Shown in pieces: positions 1 to 8,247 of a stretch of 32,000 bases of DNA (position 1 is the stretch's first letter; every line of letters begins with the position of its first letter). A model generated the notes under the pieces. The model was not told the origin of the DNA. It did no database searches and was given only the letters and a program-made list of their open reading frames with translations. The stretch comes from Alphaproteobacteria bacterium (GTDB lineage Bacteria > Pseudomonadota > Alphaproteobacteria > Rs-D84). The stretch lies in the NCBI GenBank assembly GCA_017475605.1, contig JAFVFD010000002.1, positions 1-32,000 on the forward strand. The letters are read 5' to 3'. The translations under genes and the position numbers were made by a program.

Positions 1-3000
1 GGATTATGTAAGATAACAAGTTGTAAGGCAGGATCATACTATACAAGTACGAACAGTGGGAACACGAACACATGTACAGCGTGTGGTAATGGGACGTTCT
101 TGAATGGTGATGGACATACAACGACTAGTTGTACGGCATGTAGTACGACGCCAGGGTATCCGAGTGGATTTACGAGTGGTGGAACATTCAGCACGAGTCC
201 GACTAGTGCGGCGACTGCGAGCAGTGCGTGTCGGTATGTAGCGCCTGACAAGAGCACGCCGAGCAACTGTAGTGGTATCAGCAAGAACACGGTGAGTTAC
301 AGTGGCAGTGCATGGGGTACAAACTTCTATACGGTAACATCTGCGGCGGGTAAGTACATTACGTCGAACAACAATGCGAATCCGACATGTGCGGCGGCGG
401 GCAATGGGTACTATGTGGATGCGACGAATCAGACGGCACAGACACAGTGTCCGGCTGGGTATCGCAGTGGGTCTGACAATGGTCGCGATGCGAGCACAGA
501 CTGTTATGTGAACACTACGGCAGGAAGTTATGTAAAGACTGCGAAAGATGCTACACAGACACAGTGTCCGGCGAATAGTTACTGTGTTAGCACGAAAGTA
601 TACTATAACAGCACAGGTGGCAGTGCAGCATGTAGTGGTTTAGGTGGAGGCTTGTACGCGAATTCTGCGGCTGGGTCTGATGCGGCAACCGACTGCTATA
701 TCACGATTGCGGCGACGAAGTATCTGCCTGCACAATCGTCAACAGCGGTCAGCAACTGTACAGCGAACTACTATTGTCCGGGTGGCAACTTCTATTACAG
801 CAGTACCGCCACGAACCAAGGGCGCACCGCATGTGCATCGCCATACAGCAGCAGTGCGACAAGCAGTGATGATGCGAACGATTGCTATCTGACGACGACG
901 GCGGGTAAGTATGTAGCGACGGCGGGCGAGGGCGAAACGACATGTGCGTCAAACGGGTATTGTGCTGGGGGCAGTACGATATACAAGGGTGGCAGTGTAA
1001 GTGGTCGTTCAACGACTGGTGGGCGCACCGCGTGTGCATCACCGTACAGCAGTGCGGGAACAGGCCAAGATGATGCGAACGATTGCTATCTGACTACGAC
1101 GGCGGGCAAATATGTAGCGACGGCTGGTTCTGGGGAAACGGCATGTGCGGCTGGAGGTTATTGTGCTGGAGGCAGTACGATATACAAGGGTGGCAGTGTA
1201 AGTGGCCGTTCAACGACTGGTGGGCGCACAGGCTGTCCGACGGCGTATCCGAGCAGTGCAACAAGTAGCAGTAAGATAGGTCAGTGTTACTTGACGTTGA
1301 CTGCAGGAAAGCAGGTAGCGAGTGCAGGGGCAGGGTCGAGCAACTGTAGTGCTGGTCGGTATTGCACGAGTACTGGTAACATCTATTACAACACGGATGG
1401 GGGTACGGCGACATATACAGGTACACAATGTGTAGCGGGATCATACAGTACCGCGGGTGCAAGCAGCTGTACGGCATGCGGTAATGGTAAGACGAGTACG
1501 GCTGGTGCGACATCATCCAGTTCATGTACAGATTGTACTGCGATAAGTGGATCGGCTGGATGGGCGGCGACATCGTGGAATACCAACAACACGATGACCA
1601 ACCTGTGTACGACATCTGGGTGTCAAGCGAACTACTATAAGAGTGGTAACAGTTGTCCGTCATGTTCAAGTGGAACGAACAGCAAATACACCAAGAGTTC
1701 TGCTGGTACGACGACAGTGAACAACTGTTATCTGACGACGACGGCGGGTAAATATATAACATCTGCGAATGCAGGGACGGGGACAGAAAGTGCGTGTGCG
1801 GCAGGGAGTTACTGTCCTGGAAGTGTAACGATATACTACGGTGGGACCCATAGCAGCAGCCACTTGACGTATGGAGGAAGCACCGCATGTGCATCGCCAT
1901 ACAGCAGCAGTGCGGCGAGCAGTGATGATGCGAACGATTGCTATCTGACTACGACGGCGGGTAAGTATGTTGCGACGGCTGGCGCGGGCGAAACGACGTG
2001 TGCTGAGAACGGGTATTGCCCAGGTGGCAGCGACATTTACAAGGGTGGCAGTGTAACTGGTCGTGCAACGACTGGTGGGCGCACCGCGTGTACATCACCG
2101 TACAGCAGTGCGGCAACCGGCCAAGATGATGCGAACGATTGTTATTTGACTACAACAGCGACAAAGTATGTTGCAACCGCGGGCGCTGGGGAAACGACTT
2201 GTGTGGCGGGTGGTTATTGCGCGGGCGGCACAACGGTTTACAAGGGGGGCAGTGTCAGCGGTCGTGTAACGACTGGTGGTATGACGGTCTGTGCGGACAA
2301 TACATATTCTTCCGCGGGAGCATCATCTTGTACCGCATGCGGCACCGCGAACGGTTACCATAACACCGGTACGGCGGCCAGTGCACACGCAACCGTTGCA
2401 TCGTGTGTGGCAACATGTGATGCAGGACAGTATGTTGCGACGGCTGGTGCGGGCTGTATCAGTACGACTGCGGGTAATTACAGCACCGGCGGAACGGTTG
2501 CACAAGATGCAACATTATCACAAACACCATGTGCGGCGGGGACCTATGCGGCATCGGGTGGAATGTCCGCGTGTACACCTGCGGCCAAGGGGTATTATGT
2601 GTCTGGCACCGGTAAAACGGCGCAAAGCGCGTGTTATGGGGGCAAGTATCAGGATGAAACGGGCCAATCATCGTGTAAATCGTGTCCGGCGGCATATCCA
2701 TCGGGTAATTATGCGATAACATCAATTAACAGTTGTTATTACAGTTGCCTTGGCGGGACATATTATGCGAATGCGAACGATGGTAAATGTACCGATGTTG
2801 GAACGGGCTATTATGCGGCGCACCAGAATGTAAGTTATGGCAAGTCTGGAACCCGCACCGCGTGTCCGTCTGGCATGACAACGACCGGTTCGGGCTATGG
2901 CGCGGACGAGGCCGCCGACTGTGGCCGGGTTCTGAAAACCGATGGTACAAGTGTGCGCCTGCGTCAGACCAAGAAGACGACACCGTCGCTTAATGTAAAA

Positions 3001-3507
3001 ATAGGGGACACCACATATTATGGTAATATGTCATTGGTGGAACATAAGACGACGGCGGGTTCGACCAGGGCGTTGCGTGTAAAAAACAATGATGGTTCAT
3101 ACTATGTCTATGATGATACCGCACAGGAAAATCGTGGTTATCCATGGGATGCAACCGGGTTTAACATAAACACGAACGGCACGACATATACATACAGTGC
3201 GGCAAATATGACATGGGAAACGACATTCGCGTGGGGCAAGGTATCTGGTATAGCGGCATGTAATTCGACGGCGGGTTCATGGGCAGTTGCATCGCCGGAT
3301 GTCCAGGCAAACAGTGGTGGAACGCGTTGCTGGTGCAAAATGACCAATGCCGATGGCATTGATACATCCGCTGTGTCGTCCTGGGTGTTCTACGACACGA
3401 GCTCCTCGGCTGCCGTTTGTGCGTCTAACTGTGCTGGCATCTGCGGTAGCTACGTCCGTCGCTCTGCCGTCTTCCGGTCCGGCGTGTTTTCGGCCGTCGG
3501 CGATTGA
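1..3507 (+). CDS. Giant Cys/Thr/Ser/Gly-rich repeat protein, DGR target (5' end outside window, C-terminal VR)
   Basis: Frame 1 is open from base 1: GLCKITSCKAGSYYTS... precedes the first Met at 100, so the gene is 5'-partial (>1168 aa). It has CxxC / C-x-A-G-x-Y cysteine-rich modules (CTACG, SCPSCSSG) and the motif [DN]CY[LIV]xxxA[GT]xY at least 8 times. The last 45 codons are the DGR VR. Stop codon at 3505-3507. Confidence 0.9.
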   Translation, partial: GLCKITSCKAGSYYTSTNSGNTNTCTACGNGTFLNGDGHTTTSCTACSTTPGYPSGFTSGGTFSTSPTSAATASSACRYVAPDKSTPSNCSGISKNTVSYSGSAWGTNFYTVTSAAGKYITSNNNANPTCAAAGNGYYVDATNQTAQTQCPAGYRSGSDNGRDASTDCYVNTTAGSYVKTAKDATQTQCPANSYCVSTKVYYNSTGGSAACSGLGGGLYANSAAGSDAATDCYITIAATKYLPAQSSTAVSNCTANYYCPGGNFYYSSTATNQGRTACASPYSSSATSSDDANDCYLTTTAGKYVATAGEGETTCASNGYCAGGSTIYKGGSVSGRSTTGGRTACASPYSSAGTGQDDANDCYLTTTAGKYVATAGSGETACAAGGYCAGGSTIYKGGSVSGRSTTGGRTGCPTAYPSSATSSSKIGQCYLTLTAGKQVASAGAGSSNCSAGRYCTSTGNIYYNTDGGTATYTGTQCVAGSYSTAGASSCTACGNGKTSTAGATSSSSCTDCTAISGSAGWAATSWNTNNTMTNLCTTSGCQANYYKSGNSCPSCSSGTNSKYTKSSAGTTTVNNCYLTTTAGKYITSANAGTGTESACAAGSYCPGSVTIYYGGTHSSSHLTYGGSTACASPYSSSAASSDDANDCYLTTTAGKYVATAGAGETTCAENGYCPGGSDIYKGGSVTGRATTGGRTACTSPYSSAATGQDDANDCYLTTTATKYVATAGAGETTCVAGGYCAGGTTVYKGGSVSGRVTTGGMTVCADNTYSSAGASSCTACGTANGYHNTGTAASAHATVASCVATCDAGQYVATAGAGCISTTAGNYSTGGTVAQDATLSQTPCAAGTYAASGGMSACTPAAKGYYVSGTGKTAQSACYGGKYQDETGQSSCKSCPAAYPSGNYAITSINSCYYSCLGGTYYANANDGKCTDVGTGYYAAHQNVSYGKSGTRTACPSGMTTTGSGYGADEAADCGRVLKTDGTSVRLRQTKKTTPSLNVKIGDTTYYGNMSLVEHKTTAGSTRALRVKNNDGSYYVYDDTAQENRGYPWDATGFNINTNGTTYTYSAANMTWETTFAWGKVSGIAACNSTAGSWAVASPDVQANSGGTRCWCKMTNADGIDTSAVSSWVFYDTSSSAAVCASNCAGICGSYVRRSAVFRSGVFSAVGD
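821..1222 (+). repeat. Two tandem 201-bp (67-aa) intragenic repeats (GRTACASPYSS...DDANDCYLTTTAGKYVATAG.GET.C...GYCAGGSTIYKGGSVSGRSTTG)
   Basis: The string caccgc(a/g)tgtgcatc recurs at 825 and 1026 (period 201). The translated units are near identical. Confidence 0.85.
1877..2278 (+). repeat. Second pair of the same 201-bp repeat, offset 1056 bp from the first pair
   Basis: caccgcatgtgcatcg at 1881 and caccgcgtgtacatc at 2082. The units translate to G(S/R)TAC(A/T)SPYSS...DDANDCYLTTTA(G/T)KYVATAGAGETTC... Confidence 0.85.
3367..3501 (+). other. DGR variable region (VR)
   Basis: Hand alignment with the reverse complement of 5303-5437 gives 121/135 identities. All 14 mismatches (VR positions 3391-3470) lie opposite TR adenines. 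It is in frame as SAVSSWVFYDTSSSAAVCASNCAGICGSYVRRSAVFRSGVFSAVG. Confidence 0.95.
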
Positions 3508-3523
3508 TACATCGGCGCCGGGC

Positions 3524-3545
3524 CCCATGCGACCTGTCGCATGGG
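3524..3545. promoter_or_regulatory. GC-rich hairpin 23 nt downstream of VR (candidate DGR target-recognition hairpin/cruciform)
   Basis: cccatgcga (3524-3532), loop cctg (3533-3536), tcgcatggg (3537-3545): a 9-bp perfect stem with a 4-nt loop, seen directly in the sequence. Confidence 0.5.
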
Positions 3546-3565
3546 TGGGTAAAACGGAAACCGTA

Positions 3566-3600
3566 CCGCCACACACCGTGTGTGTGGCGGTATTATTTGT
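3566..3600 (+). terminator. Rho-independent terminator of the target gene
   Basis: ccgccacacac / cgt / gtgtgtggcgg forms an 11-bp stem, followed by tattatttgt. Confidence 0.6.
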
Positions 3601-3605
3601 CTTTG

Positions 3606-3657
3606 CTGCGTTCGCAATGACAAGTGGCTGGATTGTTTTGCTGCGCCCGCAATGACA
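3606..3657. repeat. Two partial (right-half) copies of the ...tcgcaatgaca palindromic element family
   Basis: tcgcaatgaca at 3612-3622 and ggattgttttgctgcgcccgcaatgaca at 3630-3657. Compare the right halves of the full elements at 5582-5657 and 10419-10588. Confidence 0.7.
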
Positions 3658-3669
3658 AAGAGGGGGGTG

Positions 3670-3698
3670 TTGCAATAGTAATAATTTGTTGCTATAAT
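3670..3698 (+). promoter_or_regulatory. Sigma70-like promoter for the small ORF (TTGCAA-17 nt-TATAAT)
   Basis: ttgcaa at 3670-3675, a 17-nt spacer, and tataat at 3693-3698. It lies 25 nt upstream of the ATG at 3723, which is preceded by a ggggggg RBS. Confidence 0.45.
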
Positions 3699-3722
3699 TA
3701 TAAAAAAGATTGGGGGGGCAAT

Positions 3723-4049
3723 ATGACGCTGGATGAAATAAGTAAATTAAACAACACCGAATGTCCGAAATTCGCATCGTTCGCGCGGGATAAGTTGCCA
3801 ATGCCAGGGAAAAAGAAACGTTTGGATGAAATATTAAACCAGGAAATAATGGTAACTGATTTTCGCATAAATAAATCAAAAAAGCAGGTCGGTGGCGAAT
3901 GTTTACAATTACAATTCGTGTTGGGTGGCGAAGTATGTGTTGCCTTTACCGGCAGTGTCGTTTTAATTGACCAAATTCAGTCAGCCGAAGGAAATATTCC
4001 GTTTGTTGCAACCGTTGTAAAAATAGATAAATATTATTCTTTTTCCTGA
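3723..4049 (+). CDS. Hypothetical 108-aa protein between VR and RT (possible non-Avd DGR accessory factor)
   Basis: The ATG at 3723 has a G-rich RBS at 3713-3719 and its own promoter. The upstream part of the 3624 ORF reads through repeat elements and is unlikely to be coding. The sequence MTLDEISKLNNTECPKF...CLQLQFVLGGEVCVAFTGSVVLIDQIQ... matches no family I recognise. Confidence 0.6.
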   Translation: MTLDEISKLNNTECPKFASFARDKLPMPGKKKRLDEILNQEIMVTDFRINKSKKQVGGECLQLQFVLGGEVCVAFTGSVVLIDQIQSAEGNIPFVATVVKIDKYYSFS

Positions 4050-4057
4050 TACGGTTT

Positions 4058-5092
4058 CTATTTTCGAAAAAGGTGTTTTCGTATAAAACGATTAACAAAG
4101 CGCGACGGGTGTGTTTGCTGAACTTTACGCATTAAACTGCGCCGGAAATTATAACTGCAGGCCCATTTAAGCCATCCATGCGCCGCCGCCAATTGACCCA
4201 TTGCATGTTCGGAACAATCATCGTGTTTGGCAATGTTTAATATGCGGCGGGTAAGTTTTGCTGTCCCGCGTCGTCGCATAAGAATAAAGCGCGGAAAATA
4301 TCGATAGCCAATAAAATTAATACCGCATTTTGTTGGCCTGATACTGTGTCGCGAAAACGTTAATTTTAATTCATCGTCTAGAAAGGTCTTGATTGCATCA
4401 AACGCCCGATGTAATTCGGCTTTGTCATTGGAAAAAAGACAAAAATCATCACAATACCGAATATATGCACGCCACCGTAATTTATGTTTAACAAAATAAT
4501 CTAATTCATTAAGGTATACATTACCCAACCATTGACTTGTTAAATTGCCGATCGGAATGTTTTTCCCATCACCACCAGAACGAATAATCTCGGACAGCAA
4601 ATCCATAATTCGCTTGTCGCTTATTTTGCGATGTAAAATTTTAATCATTATGGCATGGTCTAAACTTGGGTAAAACTTGTGTATGTCGCATTGCAGAACG
4701 TATTTATGTTTTCGCATCATTGTCATTGTGCGCATCGCTGCACCATGTAAGCCACGTCCAGGAATACAAGCGAAAGAATCTGGTATAAATATGCGCATCC
4801 ATATCGGCCCAAGGATGTTTATTAACGCATGATGCACAATGTGGTCTGGATAAAGTGGCAGTTCATAGATTTTTCGTTTCTTGGGTTCATATATCGTGAA
4901 AACATTGTATGGGGATGTATGGAATTGATTGTTCCCCAGGTCGCGTCGTAATTTTTCGATATACATATCGCGATGCTTAAGAAAATGCCGGGTTTGTGGT
5001 TTGCCAGCCTTGCTTTTTACCGCATTATTAACGGCAACGGCAAAGTTTTCATCTGATATAAAATCTTTCCACAGATTGTTGTATCTTTTCAT
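4058..5092 (-). CDS. DGR-type reverse transcriptase
   Basis: 344 aa. RT motifs: LQCDIHKFYPSLDH, IGNLTSQWLGNVYLNELD (the [I/L]GxxxSQ signature typical of DGR RTs), YIRYCDDF (YxDD box) and GINFIGYRYF. It is on the same strand as the TR and 210 nt downstream of it. Confidence 0.93.
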   Translation of the reverse strand: MKRYNNLWKDFISDENFAVAVNNAVKSKAGKPQTRHFLKHRDMYIEKLRRDLGNNQFHTSPYNVFTIYEPKKRKIYELPLYPDHIVHHALINILGPIWMRIFIPDSFACIPGRGLHGAAMRTMTMMRKHKYVLQCDIHKFYPSLDHAIMIKILHRKISDKRIMDLLSEIIRSGGDGKNIPIGNLTSQWLGNVYLNELDYFVKHKLRWRAYIRYCDDFCLFSNDKAELHRAFDAIKTFLDDELKLTFSRHSIRPTKCGINFIGYRYFPRFILMRRRGTAKLTRRILNIAKHDDCSEHAMGQLAAAHGWLKWACSYNFRRSLMRKVQQTHPSRFVNRFIRKHLFRK

Positions 5093-5437
5093 TGTTGTTT
5101 GAATATCCTGGGCGTTGGCAGAAAATATTTTCCACTACTAGCCCAGATATTCCCTGTGCATTGTATTCGTAAGAATACGTAATGTATTCAAACAGGTCGC
5201 GGTATCCCGCCTTTGATACATTCAAGGCAAACAAGTATATTACCCTTGTGTCCCACAGGTTGGCAAAACTTATACCTTTTGGCAAGTTTGTTGACCAAAG
5301 GAGCCGACGGCCGAAAACACGCCGGACCGGAAGTCGGCATAGTTACGGACGTTGTTACCGCAGTTGTTAGCACAGTTAGACGCACATTCGGCAGCCGAGG
5401 AGTTCGTGTTGTTGAACACCCAGGACGACACAGCGGA
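5093..5437 (-). ncRNA. Predicted DGR template RNA (TR plus ~210-nt spacer upstream of RT)
   Basis: By analogy with the Bordetella phage DGR, where TR plus the spacer RNA is the RT substrate. The spacer carries several hairpins: gaatatcctgggc(5101-5113)/gcccagatattc(5141-5152), the palindrome gaaaatattttc (5121-5132), and gtattc-gtaa-gaatac (5163-5178). Confidence 0.5.
5303..5437 (-). other. DGR template repeat (TR)
   Basis: It is the reverse complement of the VR with 14 differences, all at TR adenines. Read in the VR frame it has 23 A's, including 9 AAC codons (SAVSSWVFNNTNSSAAECASNCANNCGNNVRNYADFRSGVFSAVG). Confidence 0.95.
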
Positions 5438-5477
5438 AAACTGTACGCTGAACTGATACGATACCGAAACCGAATTG

Positions 5478-5486
5478 ATTATAACA
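5478..5486 (-). promoter_or_regulatory. Extended -10 element (TGtTATAAT) upstream of TR
   Basis: The minus strand reads tgttataat about 41 nt upstream of the TR 5' end. No good -35 element. Confidence 0.3.
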
Positions 5487-5509
5487 AGAAAACACAGGAA
5501 AAGAAGGCT

Positions 5510-5539
5510 AAAAAACCACCGCCATCGCGGTGGTTTTTT
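5510..5539. terminator. Bidirectional hairpin terminator (copy 1 of a 38-bp direct repeat)
   Basis: aaaaaa-ccaccgc-catc-gcggtgg-tttttt. The string aaaaaccaccgccatcgcggtggtttttt(t)gttgttatg recurs at 5693-5731. Confidence 0.55.
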
Positions 5540-5581
5540 GTTGTTATGTATAATACCACCATTATAGCAACGATTTTCTTT

Positions 5582-5692
5582 TGTCATTGCGAGGAGCCGT
5601 CAGGCGACGCGGCAATCCAGGGGGGGGTATGGATTGCTTCGCAGGCTCGCAATGACAAGGGTTGTGGATTGCCACGCTGCGCTGGCAATGAT
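5582..5692. repeat. 76-bp palindromic MITE/REP-like element (5582-5657) plus an extra right-half copy (5665-5692)
   Basis: The termini tgtcattgcgag...ctcgcaatgaca are reverse complements, with inner arms cgcggcaatc / gattgcttcgc. Confidence 0.8.
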
Positions 5693-5722
5693 AAAAACCA
5701 CCGCCATCGCGGTGGTTTTTTT
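5693..5722. terminator. Hairpin terminator, copy 2 of the direct repeat
   Basis: Same ccaccgc-catc-gcggtgg hairpin, flanked by A and T runs. Confidence 0.5.
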
Positions 5723-5775
5723 GTTGTTATGGTTGTTCTTCTTTCTTCGTCATCCCGGCGGTATTCTTCTTTCAT

Positions 5776-5909
5776 CGTCATCCCGGCGGATGCCGGGATC
5801 CAGTTTGCGAAAGCAAACTTGTTTGCGCGAACACAAACAATGTTCGTAATTACGAATAAACAAGTTGGTGCCCAAGTGGCACCAACTGGATACCGCAATT
5901 CTGCGGTAT
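5776..5909. repeat. Chain of six consecutive short hairpins/palindromes, starting with the cgtcatcccggcggatgccgggatccag element
   Basis: The six are atcccggc-ggat-gccgggat; gtttgc-gaaa-gcaaac (5803-5818); ttgtttg-N8-caaacaa (5819-5840); ttcgtaattacgaa (5843-5856); agttggtgcc-N6-ggcaccaact (5863-5888); ataccgca-attc-tgcggtat (5890-5909). Confidence 0.75.
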
Positions 5910-5979: not shown

Positions 5980-6297
5980 ATGAAAAATGGTGGTTATGTT
6001 TATATAATGGCATCAAAACGTATGGGAACAATTTATATCGGTTCGACATCCGATTTAGTTGGGCGCGCGCTTGAACATAAAAACAAAGTTTATCCTAAAT
6101 CTTTTACCGCAAAATACGATTGCGATAAATTAGTGTATTATGAATATCATGAATCGCTGGAAAATATGGTAAAACGGGAAAGACAATTAAAAGAGTGGCC
6201 GCGTAATTGGAAGATAAAGTTAATCATAGATAAAAACACAGATTGGCACGATTTGTATTCTGAATTATTGGAAAGTTATGGGTATAAGTCGGAATAA
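5980..6297 (+). CDS. GIY-YIG nuclease-superfamily protein (UPF0213/YhbQ-like)
   Basis: GGYVYIMASKRMGTIYIGSTSDLVGRALEHK...RERQLKEW.RNWKIKLI matches the GIY...YIG...R...E...K.W pattern of small GIY-YIG proteins. Confidence 0.85.
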   Translation: MKNGGYVYIMASKRMGTIYIGSTSDLVGRALEHKNKVYPKSFTAKYDCDKLVYYEYHESLENMVKRERQLKEWPRNWKIKLIIDKNTDWHDLYSELLESYGYKSE

Positions 6298-6314
6298 CAA
6301 GTCGCCGTTGGCGA

Positions 6315-6342
6315 CTGGATCCCGGCATCCGCCGGGATGACG
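6315..6342. repeat. 28-bp element, perfect inverted copy of 5776-5803
   Basis: ctggatcccggcatccgccgggatgacg is the exact reverse complement of cgtcatcccggcggatgccgggatccag at 5776-5803. Confidence 0.9.
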
Positions 6343-6365
6343 AGTGAAAGGTCGTCATAATGACA

Positions 6366-6450: not shown

Positions 6451-8247
6451 TTAACCCACCAATTTTTGCCAAATTGTTTGTTTGCGTTTCGGTTGGGGTT
6501 TGCGTTTGCGACGCGGCGCATTCATTGTTGTTTTCTTGGCATCAACATGTTGCGCATTTTTCTTTTTCGCATCGGTTGATGGCGCATGCGCGTCCAACAA
6601 ATCGTCGGTTTTGTTCTGTTCCGGCGCAACGCGTTGAATTGAATACTGATCAATGTTCATCATGCTGTCGTCGCCGACAATAACGATTTCAGTTTCAAAT
6701 TCGCGTTCCATATCCGCCAGTTCTGCGCGCTTGTTATTAAGCAGGTAAATCGCCACATCGGTCGGAACCGTCATGATAATTTTTTGCGCCGATTTCGCCA
6801 ATAACTTTTCTTGCAAATGACGGAACATAATAATCGCCGCCGTCTGAATTGATGGCACCACGCCGGCACCCATACAATGAGGGCACGCGATATAGGACGA
6901 TTCAATGAAACTGCTGCGCAGGCGTTGACGCGACAACATCAACACACCAAACGCGTTGATTTTGGCAACCTGGGTGCGGGCGCGGTCGCGTTTCATAACT
7001 TCGCGCATTTTCATTTCCAGTTTGCGATTGTTGCGTTCTTCTTCCATATCGATAAAGTCAATCGCAACAATTCCCGCCAAATCACGCAGGCGCAACTGTA
7101 ATGCGATTTCTTCGGCCGCCTCTAAATTAGTGTTAAGTGCGGTCTGTTCGATATCTTTTTCCTTAATCGCGCGGGATGAATTAACGTCAATTGTAACCAT
7201 GGCTTCGGTTTGGTTAATAACAATCGAACCGCCCGATGGCAATATGACATAGGGGCCATGTAAACCTTCCAGTTGCTTTTCAACACCGGCCTTGACCATA
7301 ATAGGAACCGCTGGATCGCGATAGTTTACCAACTGTTTGCGTGGCGCGCGACCATACAATTGCTGGAAATAAGTTTTCGCGGCATCAAATGCTTCGTCGC
7401 CCTGGATAGTCAGGACATCTTCTTTGTCAGAAAGGAAGTCGCGTACCACACGACGCAACAGGGAATCTTCGGTATGAATTGTAACCGGTGCGACCGATTC
7501 CAATGTGGTCTTGCGAATTTCGTTCCACAAATTCACCAGGTAATCGTAATCGGCGGCAATATCTTCGGGTTTAGCATCCATGGCGGCGGTACGCAAAACA
7601 ACCGTCATGCCCTTGGGTATCTTTAAACCATGTAATATTTCACGCAGGCGCGCGCGTTCCGATTTATCGGAAATCTTTTTGGAAATACCATAACTGTTGC
7701 GTTTGCGCGAATTCGGCATCAACACCGCAAAACGACCAGCCAACGACAGATAGGTTGTCATGGACGCGCCTTTCTGGCCACGTTCTTCCTTGACCCCCTG
7801 GACCAGCAAGATTTGTTTTGGCTTTATAACGTCCTGAATCTTGAATTCGTGAACGCGTTTTGTAAATTCTTTGTTATCTTCGCCGGCACTGTGATCGTCG
7901 TATTCGGCAACCTCGTCATTTTCGTCGTCGGGGTCGTCGTCGTCATCTACGATGTTGGCATGTGCCAATTCAATCAATTTCTTTTTCTGTTCAGGGGTTA
8001 TTTGGTAATAATCTGGGTGTATTTCAGAAAACGGCAAAAATCCGTTCTTGCCAGTGCCGTAATCAACAAATGCCGCCTGAAGCGATGGTTCGACGCGAAT
8101 AACCTTGGCCAGATAAATGTTCCCTTTTATCTGGGGCTTAGTAGTTGTTTCAACGTCAAAATCAGAAACCCGGTTCGTCGCCGTATCCACGACAACAACA
8201 CGTGTTTCCTCCGGGTGGACTGCATCCACATATATTCTTTTTGACAT
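6451..8247 (-). CDS. rne: Ribonuclease E/G family endoribonuclease
   Basis: N-terminus MSKRIYVDAVHPEETRVVVVD...GNIYLAKVIRVEPSLQAAFVDYG (S1 domain), followed by the catalytic core. It has an acidic insertion (DDDDDPDDENDE) and a short basic C-terminal tail. Confidence 0.85.
   Translation of the reverse strand: MSKRIYVDAVHPEETRVVVVDTATNRVSDFDVETTTKPQIKGNIYLAKVIRVEPSLQAAFVDYGTGKNGFLPFSEIHPDYYQITPEQKKKLIELAHANIVDDDDDPDDENDEVAEYDDHSAGEDNKEFTKRVHEFKIQDVIKPKQILLVQGVKEERGQKGASMTTYLSLAGRFAVLMPNSRKRNSYGISKKISDKSERARLREILHGLKIPKGMTVVLRTAAMDAKPEDIAADYDYLVNLWNEIRKTTLESVAPVTIHTEDSLLRRVVRDFLSDKEDVLTIQGDEAFDAAKTYFQQLYGRAPRKQLVNYRDPAVPIMVKAGVEKQLEGLHGPYVILPSGGSIVINQTEAMVTIDVNSSRAIKEKDIEQTALNTNLEAAEEIALQLRLRDLAGIVAIDFIDMEEERNNRKLEMKMREVMKRDRARTQVAKINAFGVLMLSRQRLRSSFIESSYIACPHCMGAGVVPSIQTAAIIMFRHLQEKLLAKSAQKIIMTVPTDVAIYLLNNKRAELADMEREFETEIVIVGDDSMMNIDQYSIQRVAPEQNKTDDLLDAHAPSTDAKKKNAQHVDAKKTTMNAPRRKRKPQPKRKQTIWQKLVG

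Follow-up and report, generated by a model that had tools for sequence, protein, structure and literature searches.

What assists the reverse transcriptase (RT) of a DGR in which no Avd gene can be recognised? In the phage BPP-1, cDNA synthesis requires Avd, which binds both bRT and the spacer RNA (PMC5758913 and papers cited there). The mechanistic knowledge of DGR reverse transcription comes entirely from this bRT-Avd complex, and the mechanism in Avd-less DGRs is an open question. According to surveys, about a quarter to a third of the DGRs are without an accessory gene, and whole RT lineages are without Avd (PMC5758913). In addition to Avd, Wu et al. (2018) distinguished the accessory classes HRDC, MSL and CH1, plus the tenuous PAG1-4 (PMC5758913).

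The question is raised by one end of an alphaproteobacterial contig (JAFVFD010000002.1 of assembly GCA_017475605.1; GTDB lineage Rs-D84), of which we analysed positions 1 to 32,000, hereafter called the window. Here a small gene of unknown family is placed between VR and the RT gene of a DGR, where an accessory gene may be expected. The first-pass annotation, made without database searches, left open whether this gene encodes a novel accessory factor or is only a passenger.

The DGR of the window

The window contains a complete DGR that consists of a target gene with VR, a TR, a spacer and an RT gene. The giant, Cys-rich target gene (1..3507, forward strand) ends in VR, i.e. in its last 45 codons (3367..3501, forward strand). 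VR forms a 135-nt inverted repeat, 90% identical, with positions 5303-5437, and this second arm represents the TR of 135 nt (5437..5303, reverse strand) that pairs with VR. All of the mismatches between TR and VR (14/14) are found at TR adenines. TR is followed by a spacer of 210 nt (5093..5302, reverse strand), the homologue of which precedes the small gene in relatives, and by the gene of the RT (P0002, 344 aa; 5092..4058, reverse strand). The RT matches RVT_1 (3.8e-11) and phrog_1423 (8e-94) and shows the DGR-style motif IGNLTSQ in its translation. With the A-specific TR/VR pair and the DGR-type RT both criteria are met, and the element is a DGR. In its source genome (817 kb in 5 contigs, 94% complete) the small gene and the RT each occur exactly once. 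Just past TR we also observed a 105-aa ORF of a GIY-YIG-type nuclease (5980-6297), which is flanked by a perfect 30-nt inverted repeat (5775-5804 / 6314-6343).

The small gene and its conservation

The small gene (3723..4049, forward strand) encodes the protein P0001. We annotate it as the gene of a putative DGR accessory protein of 108 aa with an OB-fold-like structure, based on the intact ORF, the homologues, an AlphaFold2 model and the adjacency to RTs. The intact ORF starts with ATG at 3723, comprises 108 sense codons and ends with the stop codon at 4047-4049 on the forward strand; only 8 bp (4050-4057) separate this stop from that of the convergent RT gene. All homologues start with MT(L/I)DEI, and the length in the close family is 108 aa. 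Hence, 3723 can be regarded as the true start. The alternative starts that we considered, an upstream GTG at 3624 and the one of the 82-aa gene call P0011, are excluded by this homologue N-terminus. The public call P0011 seems to begin at the internal Met27, which removes the conserved N-terminal arm of the protein.

Expression signals for a separate transcription unit are present. A promoter of the sigma-70 type (TTGCAA-17-TATAAT, extended by TG, 10/12 matches) is located at 3670..3698 (forward strand) and was the joint-best site across 3400-5700 in a promoter scan. However, the scan returned 11 sites vs 5.5 +/- 2.3 expected, so that promoter-like sites per se are not rare in this region. The G-run GGGGGGG at 3712..3718 (forward strand), 4 nt before the ATG, was read from the sequence as RBS. 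Upstream of these signals, a terminator-like hairpin of the target gene (3563..3593, forward strand) consists of a 14-pair stem followed by a T-run. That it insulates the small gene from transcription of the target gene is inferred from sequence alone. The product is a small protein of 12 kDa with a pI of 7.65, compared to mean pI values of 8.3 +/- 0.8 in the close and 8.1 +/- 1.4 in the distant family.

P0001 is a member of a large protein family. A word-indexed search found 122 close clusters, nearly all of them exactly 108 aa long and 51-87% identical; where a source name was given, they mostly came from MAGs of gut/rumen Alphaproteobacteria, including Candidatus Enterousia. The exhaustive HMMER search of 1.8 billion representatives (E<=1e-3) revealed a wider family of 389 clusters (at 50% identity), mostly with lengths of 95-110 aa. 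The alignment of 41 members has 26 invariant positions, all of which are retained in the copy of the window (26/26), and the N-terminal arm of the family is characterised by the conserved motif F-x-x-F-A ... L-P-M-P-G-x-K-K. The comparison of P0001 with 72 relatives resulted in a median dN of 0.26 at saturated dS, and dN/dS was approximately 0.15-0.23 where it was computable despite this saturation. P0001 is therefore encoded by an intact, real gene, on which purifying selection acts. Compared with the RT, the protein is better conserved (mean distance 0.38 vs 0.43), and the pairwise distances of the two proteins are correlated (Mantel r 0.53; 0/2000 permutations reached that value).

Predicted fold and distinction from Avd

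Searches with sequences and profiles did not assign the family to any characterised one. P0001 had no match in Pfam (E<=10), NCBIfam and PADLOC, and its sole match among the PHROGs, at E 0.03, is not usable. Likewise, 44 members of the wider family had no match in Pfam (E<=0.1); 15 of these 44 match phrog_19665, to which no function is assigned. The PDB sequence and profile searches found nothing, and no known OB family could be linked by profile.

The AlphaFold2 model of P0001, calculated with the 41-sequence alignment, has a mean pLDDT of 89 and a pTM of 0.72. In the model, short N-terminal helices precede a barrel, in which residues 41-107 form five strands and one 9-residue helix (DSSP: E41-51, E59-67, E70-76, H79-87, E94-101, E104-107). 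An independent AlphaFold2 model of a 43% identical phage homologue, for which the alignment was made without rows from annotated records, reached a pLDDT of 88 and shows the same order b1-b2-b3-helix-b4-b5. The models thus predict the topology of the OB-fold, with the helix between strands 3 and 4. In a Foldseek comparison with the PDB no match reached significance (best E 0.018, TMq <= 0.48); still, most of the leading matches are OB domains, namely the RuvBL1/2 external domain (RuvBL DII), human SSB1 (hSSB1), HIN-200, Teb1 and RPA. Significant matches were obtained with predicted viral structures (BFVD), where the top two (E 9e-7 with TMq 0.72, then E 7e-6) are phage proteins annotated as reverse transcriptases. 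On the basis of the predicted topology and the weak Foldseek matches, the fold is best termed "OB-like", and membership in a specific OB family has not been shown. In the following we refer to the family and its genes as OB family and OB genes.

Several approaches were used to examine whether P0001 is an Avd, and all of them led to rejection. PF05635 and PF22296 were both part of the Pfam library searched and neither matched P0001, while the control bAvd (Bbp7 of the Bordetella phage BPP-1) matches PF22296 at 7e-36. The family profile (A2) aligned to bAvd in hhalign with a probability of only 0.15%. Both AlphaFold2 models predict a five-stranded barrel and not a four-helix bundle, and Foldseek searches of the PDB with the models of P0001 and the phage homologue returned no helical bundle, neither 8UB7 nor 4DWL. 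Furthermore, Avd proteins are strongly basic with a pI of about 9.5 +/- 0.7 (PMC5758913), which is not met by P0001.

An Avd encoded elsewhere was also sought. The PF22296 search of the whole source genome found no Avd and gave only a noise match of 16.5 bits to a signal-peptide protein beside rplS, 100 kb away; as positive control, the same search in BPP-1 recovered bAvd at 2e-37. Among the conserved neighbour ORFs of 153 loci, a hidden Avd was searched for and none looked Avd-like. Inspection by eye suggested that most alphaproteobacterial clusters of such neighbours are either small target genes or artefacts antisense to TR/VR, and an unannotated ORF of about 100 aa was among the viral clusters. 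The choice of the model matters here. PF05635 (23S_rRNA_IVP) is often taken as "the Avd model". In a six-frame search of the BPP-1 record AY029185 it misses the prototype bAvd (L111:3021-3407), and a negative result with PF05635 alone is therefore no evidence for the absence of Avd.

Hence, the descriptive claims of the first-pass annotation were confirmed: the ORF of 108 aa with promoter and G-rich RBS is the only gene between VR and RT and its stop is 8 bp away from the convergent RT stop, no Avd is recognisable (Pfam, hhalign and whole-genome PF22296 search), and the protein is beta-rich rather than helical according to AlphaFold2. An Avd-like four-helix bundle, which would have turned the gene into an ordinary divergent Avd, was not predicted.

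Linkage of the OB family to DGR reverse transcriptases

Among the bacterial loci, 84 of 89 have a DGR-type RT gene adjacent to the OB gene. Three close homologues are found in three unrelated chromosomal contexts (ArgRS; GreA-MutL...YajC-SecDF; GatCAB), each of them directly upstream of a co-directional RVT_1 gene. In the alphaproteobacterial loci, the gap between OB stop and RT start has a median of only 6 nt and both genes overlap in 17/69 cases. TR is situated about 250 nt upstream of the OB gene, and the usual layout in the genus is (target-VR) TR-spacer-OB-RT.

Two of the five exceptions without an adjacent RT, L012 and L086, are decaying DGRs, and in one other case the contig is too short to judge. 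In L012 (3900-5700) the intact OB gene is still accompanied by a TR-like stretch and by a small target whose end resembles VR, and in L086 (3600-5400) the OB gene is likewise intact and accompanied by an A-mismatched TR/VR pair; no RT is found alongside in either. L012 has a small ORF and an apparent thymidine-kinase gene beside its OB gene, and L086 has apparent secF/secD/yajC genes there. Either an RT might act from elsewhere in these cases, or the OB gene outlives the RT; both remain possibilities.

The linkage extends to viruses. Four distant members with 35-50% identity are encoded in phage/prophage DGR cassettes directly downstream of the RT gene and overlapping with it, and three of these four cassettes carry TR/VR pairs and an Mtd-like target. 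When an annotated phage collection was searched by tblastn, homologues were found in ANMV-1 and vir525, both of which are archaeal viruses, and each homologue is the ORF right after the RT. In a set of 80 viral contigs, RT and OB genes are adjacent in the order RT->OB on the same strand in 76 and in the order OB->RT in 2, one contig is cut at its end and one is without RT. The RT is thus adjacent in 78/79 assessable viral contigs, often with overlap. Moreover, in-frame RT-OB fusions exist, namely P0147 (RVT_1 at residues 160-361, OB at 414-506) and P0218. Encoded fusions were sought in the viral contigs as well, which have only separate overlapping genes.

The distribution among genomes points in the same direction. 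In a sample of 151 genomes from the order, the OB gene is present in 35, the RT in 35 and both in 33, corresponding to a patchy occurrence of 23%. Within the genus only 29 of 107 genomes carry OB or RT, a patchiness as expected for a mobile cassette. However, it should be noted that related genomes are not independent, which means that the statistical weight of such co-occurrence is overstated, and the counts are given without P value. Taken together, the OB family is almost exclusively linked to RTs and sometimes fused to them. This co-localisation shows a functional linkage, but not the step at which the OB protein acts.

Some additional observations were made in these loci. Decaying copies occur in the genus, in the form of an OB gene with internal TGA, an RT gene with internal TAA and an RT match split in two (G034:C5:64105-64456; G149:C2:83833-84852; G150:C28:3086-4109); the same split of the RT match is present in L023, which is apparently the same place. 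Within the genus, DGR cassettes are both being lost and being retained. In the viral loci, an extra conserved ORF of about 90-105 aa (MRGFPKHLNTRYDVEYCLEHYPEE...) without Pfam or PHROG match is a neighbour in 27/78 cases (L119:3912-4229, L152:4146-4418, L092:4320-4631, L096:4314-4646, L098:1856-2227). It directly follows the OB gene in L092, L096, L098 and L119, which are the loci inspected. We can only speculate whether it represents a second DGR accessory gene or merely a conserved phage gene.

Regarding the alternatives left open by the first-pass annotation, the accessory factor is supported and the passenger is rejected, and the biochemical action remains an inference. The profile searches, structure prediction and co-occurrence analysis proposed there yielded no family profile match, an OB-like barrel and a confirmed co-occurrence with RTs. 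The novel-factor reading would have been refuted by homologues that are common in genomes without DGRs. This is not the case, as practically all homologues either adjoin a DGR-type RT or belong to DGR remnants that retain TR/VR.

An OB gene uncoupled from the RT operon

The arrangement in the window differs from that of all other loci examined. Only here is the OB gene convergent with the RT gene; elsewhere both are co-directional, except for G026 (divergent) and G139 (separate contigs). The OB gene of the window is placed outside of the TR-spacer-RT operon, inverted, tail-to-tail with the RT gene and under its own promoter. The closest relative, L018, with an RT of 73% identity, has the layout TR-spacer-OB-[palindromic element]-RT-[palindromic element]-VR(reverse). 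TR and spacer of the window (5438..5135) are 77% identical to those of L018, and the ATG of the RT in the window occupies the position of the OB ATG in L018.

The hairpin at the end of the spacer was retained via compensatory changes, with GGGAATATCTGGGC/GCCCAGGATATTC in the window vs GGGGTCGTCTGGGC/GTCCAGACGAC in L018. When 5093-5160 (reverse strand) of the window is compared with L018:4920-4975, AATATC/GATATT stands against GTCGTC/GACGAC, i.e. both arms have changed. These changes may hint at an RNA helix that has a function immediately upstream of the operon's first gene, a possibility inferred only from the sequence.

How the OB gene was relocated is not resolved. Its left border is formed by remnants of a palindromic element, two half copies of a palindromic repeat (...gctgcg..cgcaatgacaa; 3601..3662, no strand assigned) that belong to the direct-repeat family D1 and match the elements flanking the RT of L018. 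Elements of this family are found at borders of DGR parts but at different junctions, at 3601-3662 and 5581-5697 in the window and at L018:4286-4479, 5339-5418 and 6520-6639. The palindromic elements are conceivable candidates for the driver of the rearrangement that uncoupled OB from RT. A single inversion was considered as route and rejected, as it cannot yield the order target-VR, OB(+), RT(-), TR(-) from an L018-like or L054-like layout.

The new arrangement has consequences for expression. With 8 bp and no terminator between the two stops, the transcription units of OB and RT probably collide, which might result in interference. The 14 A-specific changes of VR show that the DGR of the window was active in the past; its current activity is untested. 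Provided that it still works, the layout of the window means that the OB gene need not be co-transcribed or translationally coupled with the RT gene, and the helper must then act in trans as a protein.

Proposed role and competing explanations

We propose that P0001 is a dedicated DGR accessory protein, in which a short N-terminal arm would be combined with a five-stranded OB-fold-like barrel. It would work as a protein, in trans, and would bind the RT and, in addition, a single-stranded nucleic acid, which could be the TR-spacer RNA or else the nascent cDNA. In this way it would be the functional counterpart of Avd in those DGR lineages that are without Avd. We consider such a nucleic-acid-binding partner of the RT, acting in trans and filling the role of Avd in Avd-less DGRs, as the likely explanation, but the binding of the RT, the binding of nucleic acids and the requirement for cDNA synthesis or retrohoming are all inferred. 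The RT-OB fusions give only indirect support for a physical association. There is no biochemical datum for any member of the family, which weighs against the proposed role. The same applies to the only mildly basic character of the protein (pI 7.65; family mean about 8.2), which falls short of that of Avd.

A bolder reading can be formulated as well. The OB-like family could be a fifth, widespread and yet unnamed class of DGR accessory proteins. Many "Avd-less" DGRs of bacteria, phages and archaeal viruses, among them a part of those that surveys list with "no accessory gene", would depend on it as an obligatory RT cofactor; its RT-OB ribonucleoprotein would prime and channel the cDNA unlike the pentameric bRT-Avd complex. 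At present we see as many reasons to accept this extended view as to doubt it.

Returning to the proposed RT partner, the competing explanation that survives best is a role after cDNA synthesis. The OB protein would then act SSB-like, coating and protecting the mutagenised ssDNA or delivering the cDNA to VR during replication, and would not be part of the RT-RNA priming complex. The OB topology, the presence of SSB, RPA and Teb1 among the weak structural matches, and the separate promoter of the OB gene in the window are in favour of it. However, translational coupling and in-frame fusions with the RT fit better to a stoichiometric RT subunit than to a coating protein needed in excess, and the sequence does not resemble the SSB family PF00436. 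We regard this explanation as unlikely.

Even less probable is a function as negative regulator, a "governor" of the RT that limits mutagenesis or off-target reverse transcription. The tight linkage would fit equally well to an inhibitor, and the remnants L012 and L086 have kept the OB gene without RT. Nevertheless, an inhibitor that is fused to its own enzyme as C-terminal domain would be unusual, and no other helper is present in these DGRs, although the only DGR RT studied needs one (bRT-Avd; PMC5758913). Moreover, VR shows A-specific divergence in most loci, the systems were therefore active with the OB gene present.

Two further explanations are all but excluded. An ordinary, highly divergent Avd would fit to the comparable size (108 aa vs 128 aa) and the same neighbourhood, and in 2015 the label "Avd" was given to an ORF of ANMV-1, apparently from pI and mass alone (PMC4372165); the beta-barrel prediction, the missing matches to PF05635 and PF22296 and the hhalign probability of 0.15% speak against it. 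An unrelated passenger between VR and RT, for which the own promoter and the orientation opposite to the RT in the window could be quoted, cannot be reconciled with a DGR RT adjoining the homologues in nearly all bacterial and assessable viral loci, among bacteria, phages and archaeal viruses, with the existing RT fusions, and with a presence or absence across genomes that tracks the RT.

Significance

A conserved small partner that is sometimes fused to the RT represents a concrete candidate for the helper of Avd-less DGRs. The family comprises hundreds of clusters, which are currently missed by DGR finders because neither Pfam nor NCBIfam nor the PHROGs annotate it. The OB family could also provide more compact or orthogonal two-protein modules for directed evolution with DGRs, and the window offers a naturally occurring case of a helper gene that has been separated from the RT operon.

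Comparison with known systems

We found no description of this OB-like family in the literature searched, which is not a proof of absence. Among the known accessory proteins, Avd (bAvd/Bbp7; PF22296, PF05635; PDB 4DWL, 8UB7) is the obvious reference. Like P0001 it is a small protein (about 110-130 aa) and a presumed helper of the RT, and its gene adjoins those of the DGR RT and TR and is co-inherited with them. In contrast, Avd is a basic four-helix-bundle pentamer, whereas P0001 is a predicted OB-like barrel, near-neutral to mildly basic and without similarity to Avd in sequence or profile.

HRDC, MSL and CH1 resemble the OB family as non-Avd genes that are conserved in DGR cassettes (PMC5758913). 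CH1 is likewise restricted to Avd-less DGRs (PMC5758913). However, CH1 proteins have 160-169 aa and are acidic with a pI of 4.7 +/- 0.2 (PMC5758913), and P0001 with 108 aa and a pI of 7.65 does not fit this class. HRDC and MSL proteins carry helical or MutS_I domains that are recognised by Pfam, whereas P0001 has no Pfam or NCBIfam match. It is possible that the family is identical with one of the minor PAG genes (PAG1-4), which we cannot exclude.

Outside of the DGR field, SSB, Teb1 and POT1-TPP1 share the order b1-b2-b3-helix-b4-b5 with the predicted structure of P0001, and only by analogy to them may P0001 be thought to hold the single-stranded product or template of the RT. The similarity to these known OB partners is neither significant in structure (E >= 0.018, TMq <= 0.48) nor detectable in sequence, and nucleic-acid binding has not been shown for P0001. 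Furthermore, the conserved N-terminal arm is specific for the P0001 family, unlike the known OB partners.

A related case is the DGR of the archaeal virus ANMV-1 (KP703175; PMC4372165). The ORF that follows its RT encodes 98 aa with a pI of 9.1 and is truly homologous to P0001 (43% identity, E 6e-14); GenBank lists it as hypothetical. The gene order is RT->OB in ANMV-1 and OB->RT in the genus of the window. An "Avd" ORF of ANMV-1 is shown by Paul et al. (2015) without a stated criterion; in their Nanoarchaeota DGRs such ORFs were chosen by pI and mass (PMC4372165). It is conceivable that the ORF labelled "Avd" in ANMV-1 is the OB homologue. Overall, the OB-like family most likely represents a non-Avd accessory class within the known DGR system, to which the window adds a unique arrangement with the accessory gene uncoupled from the RT.
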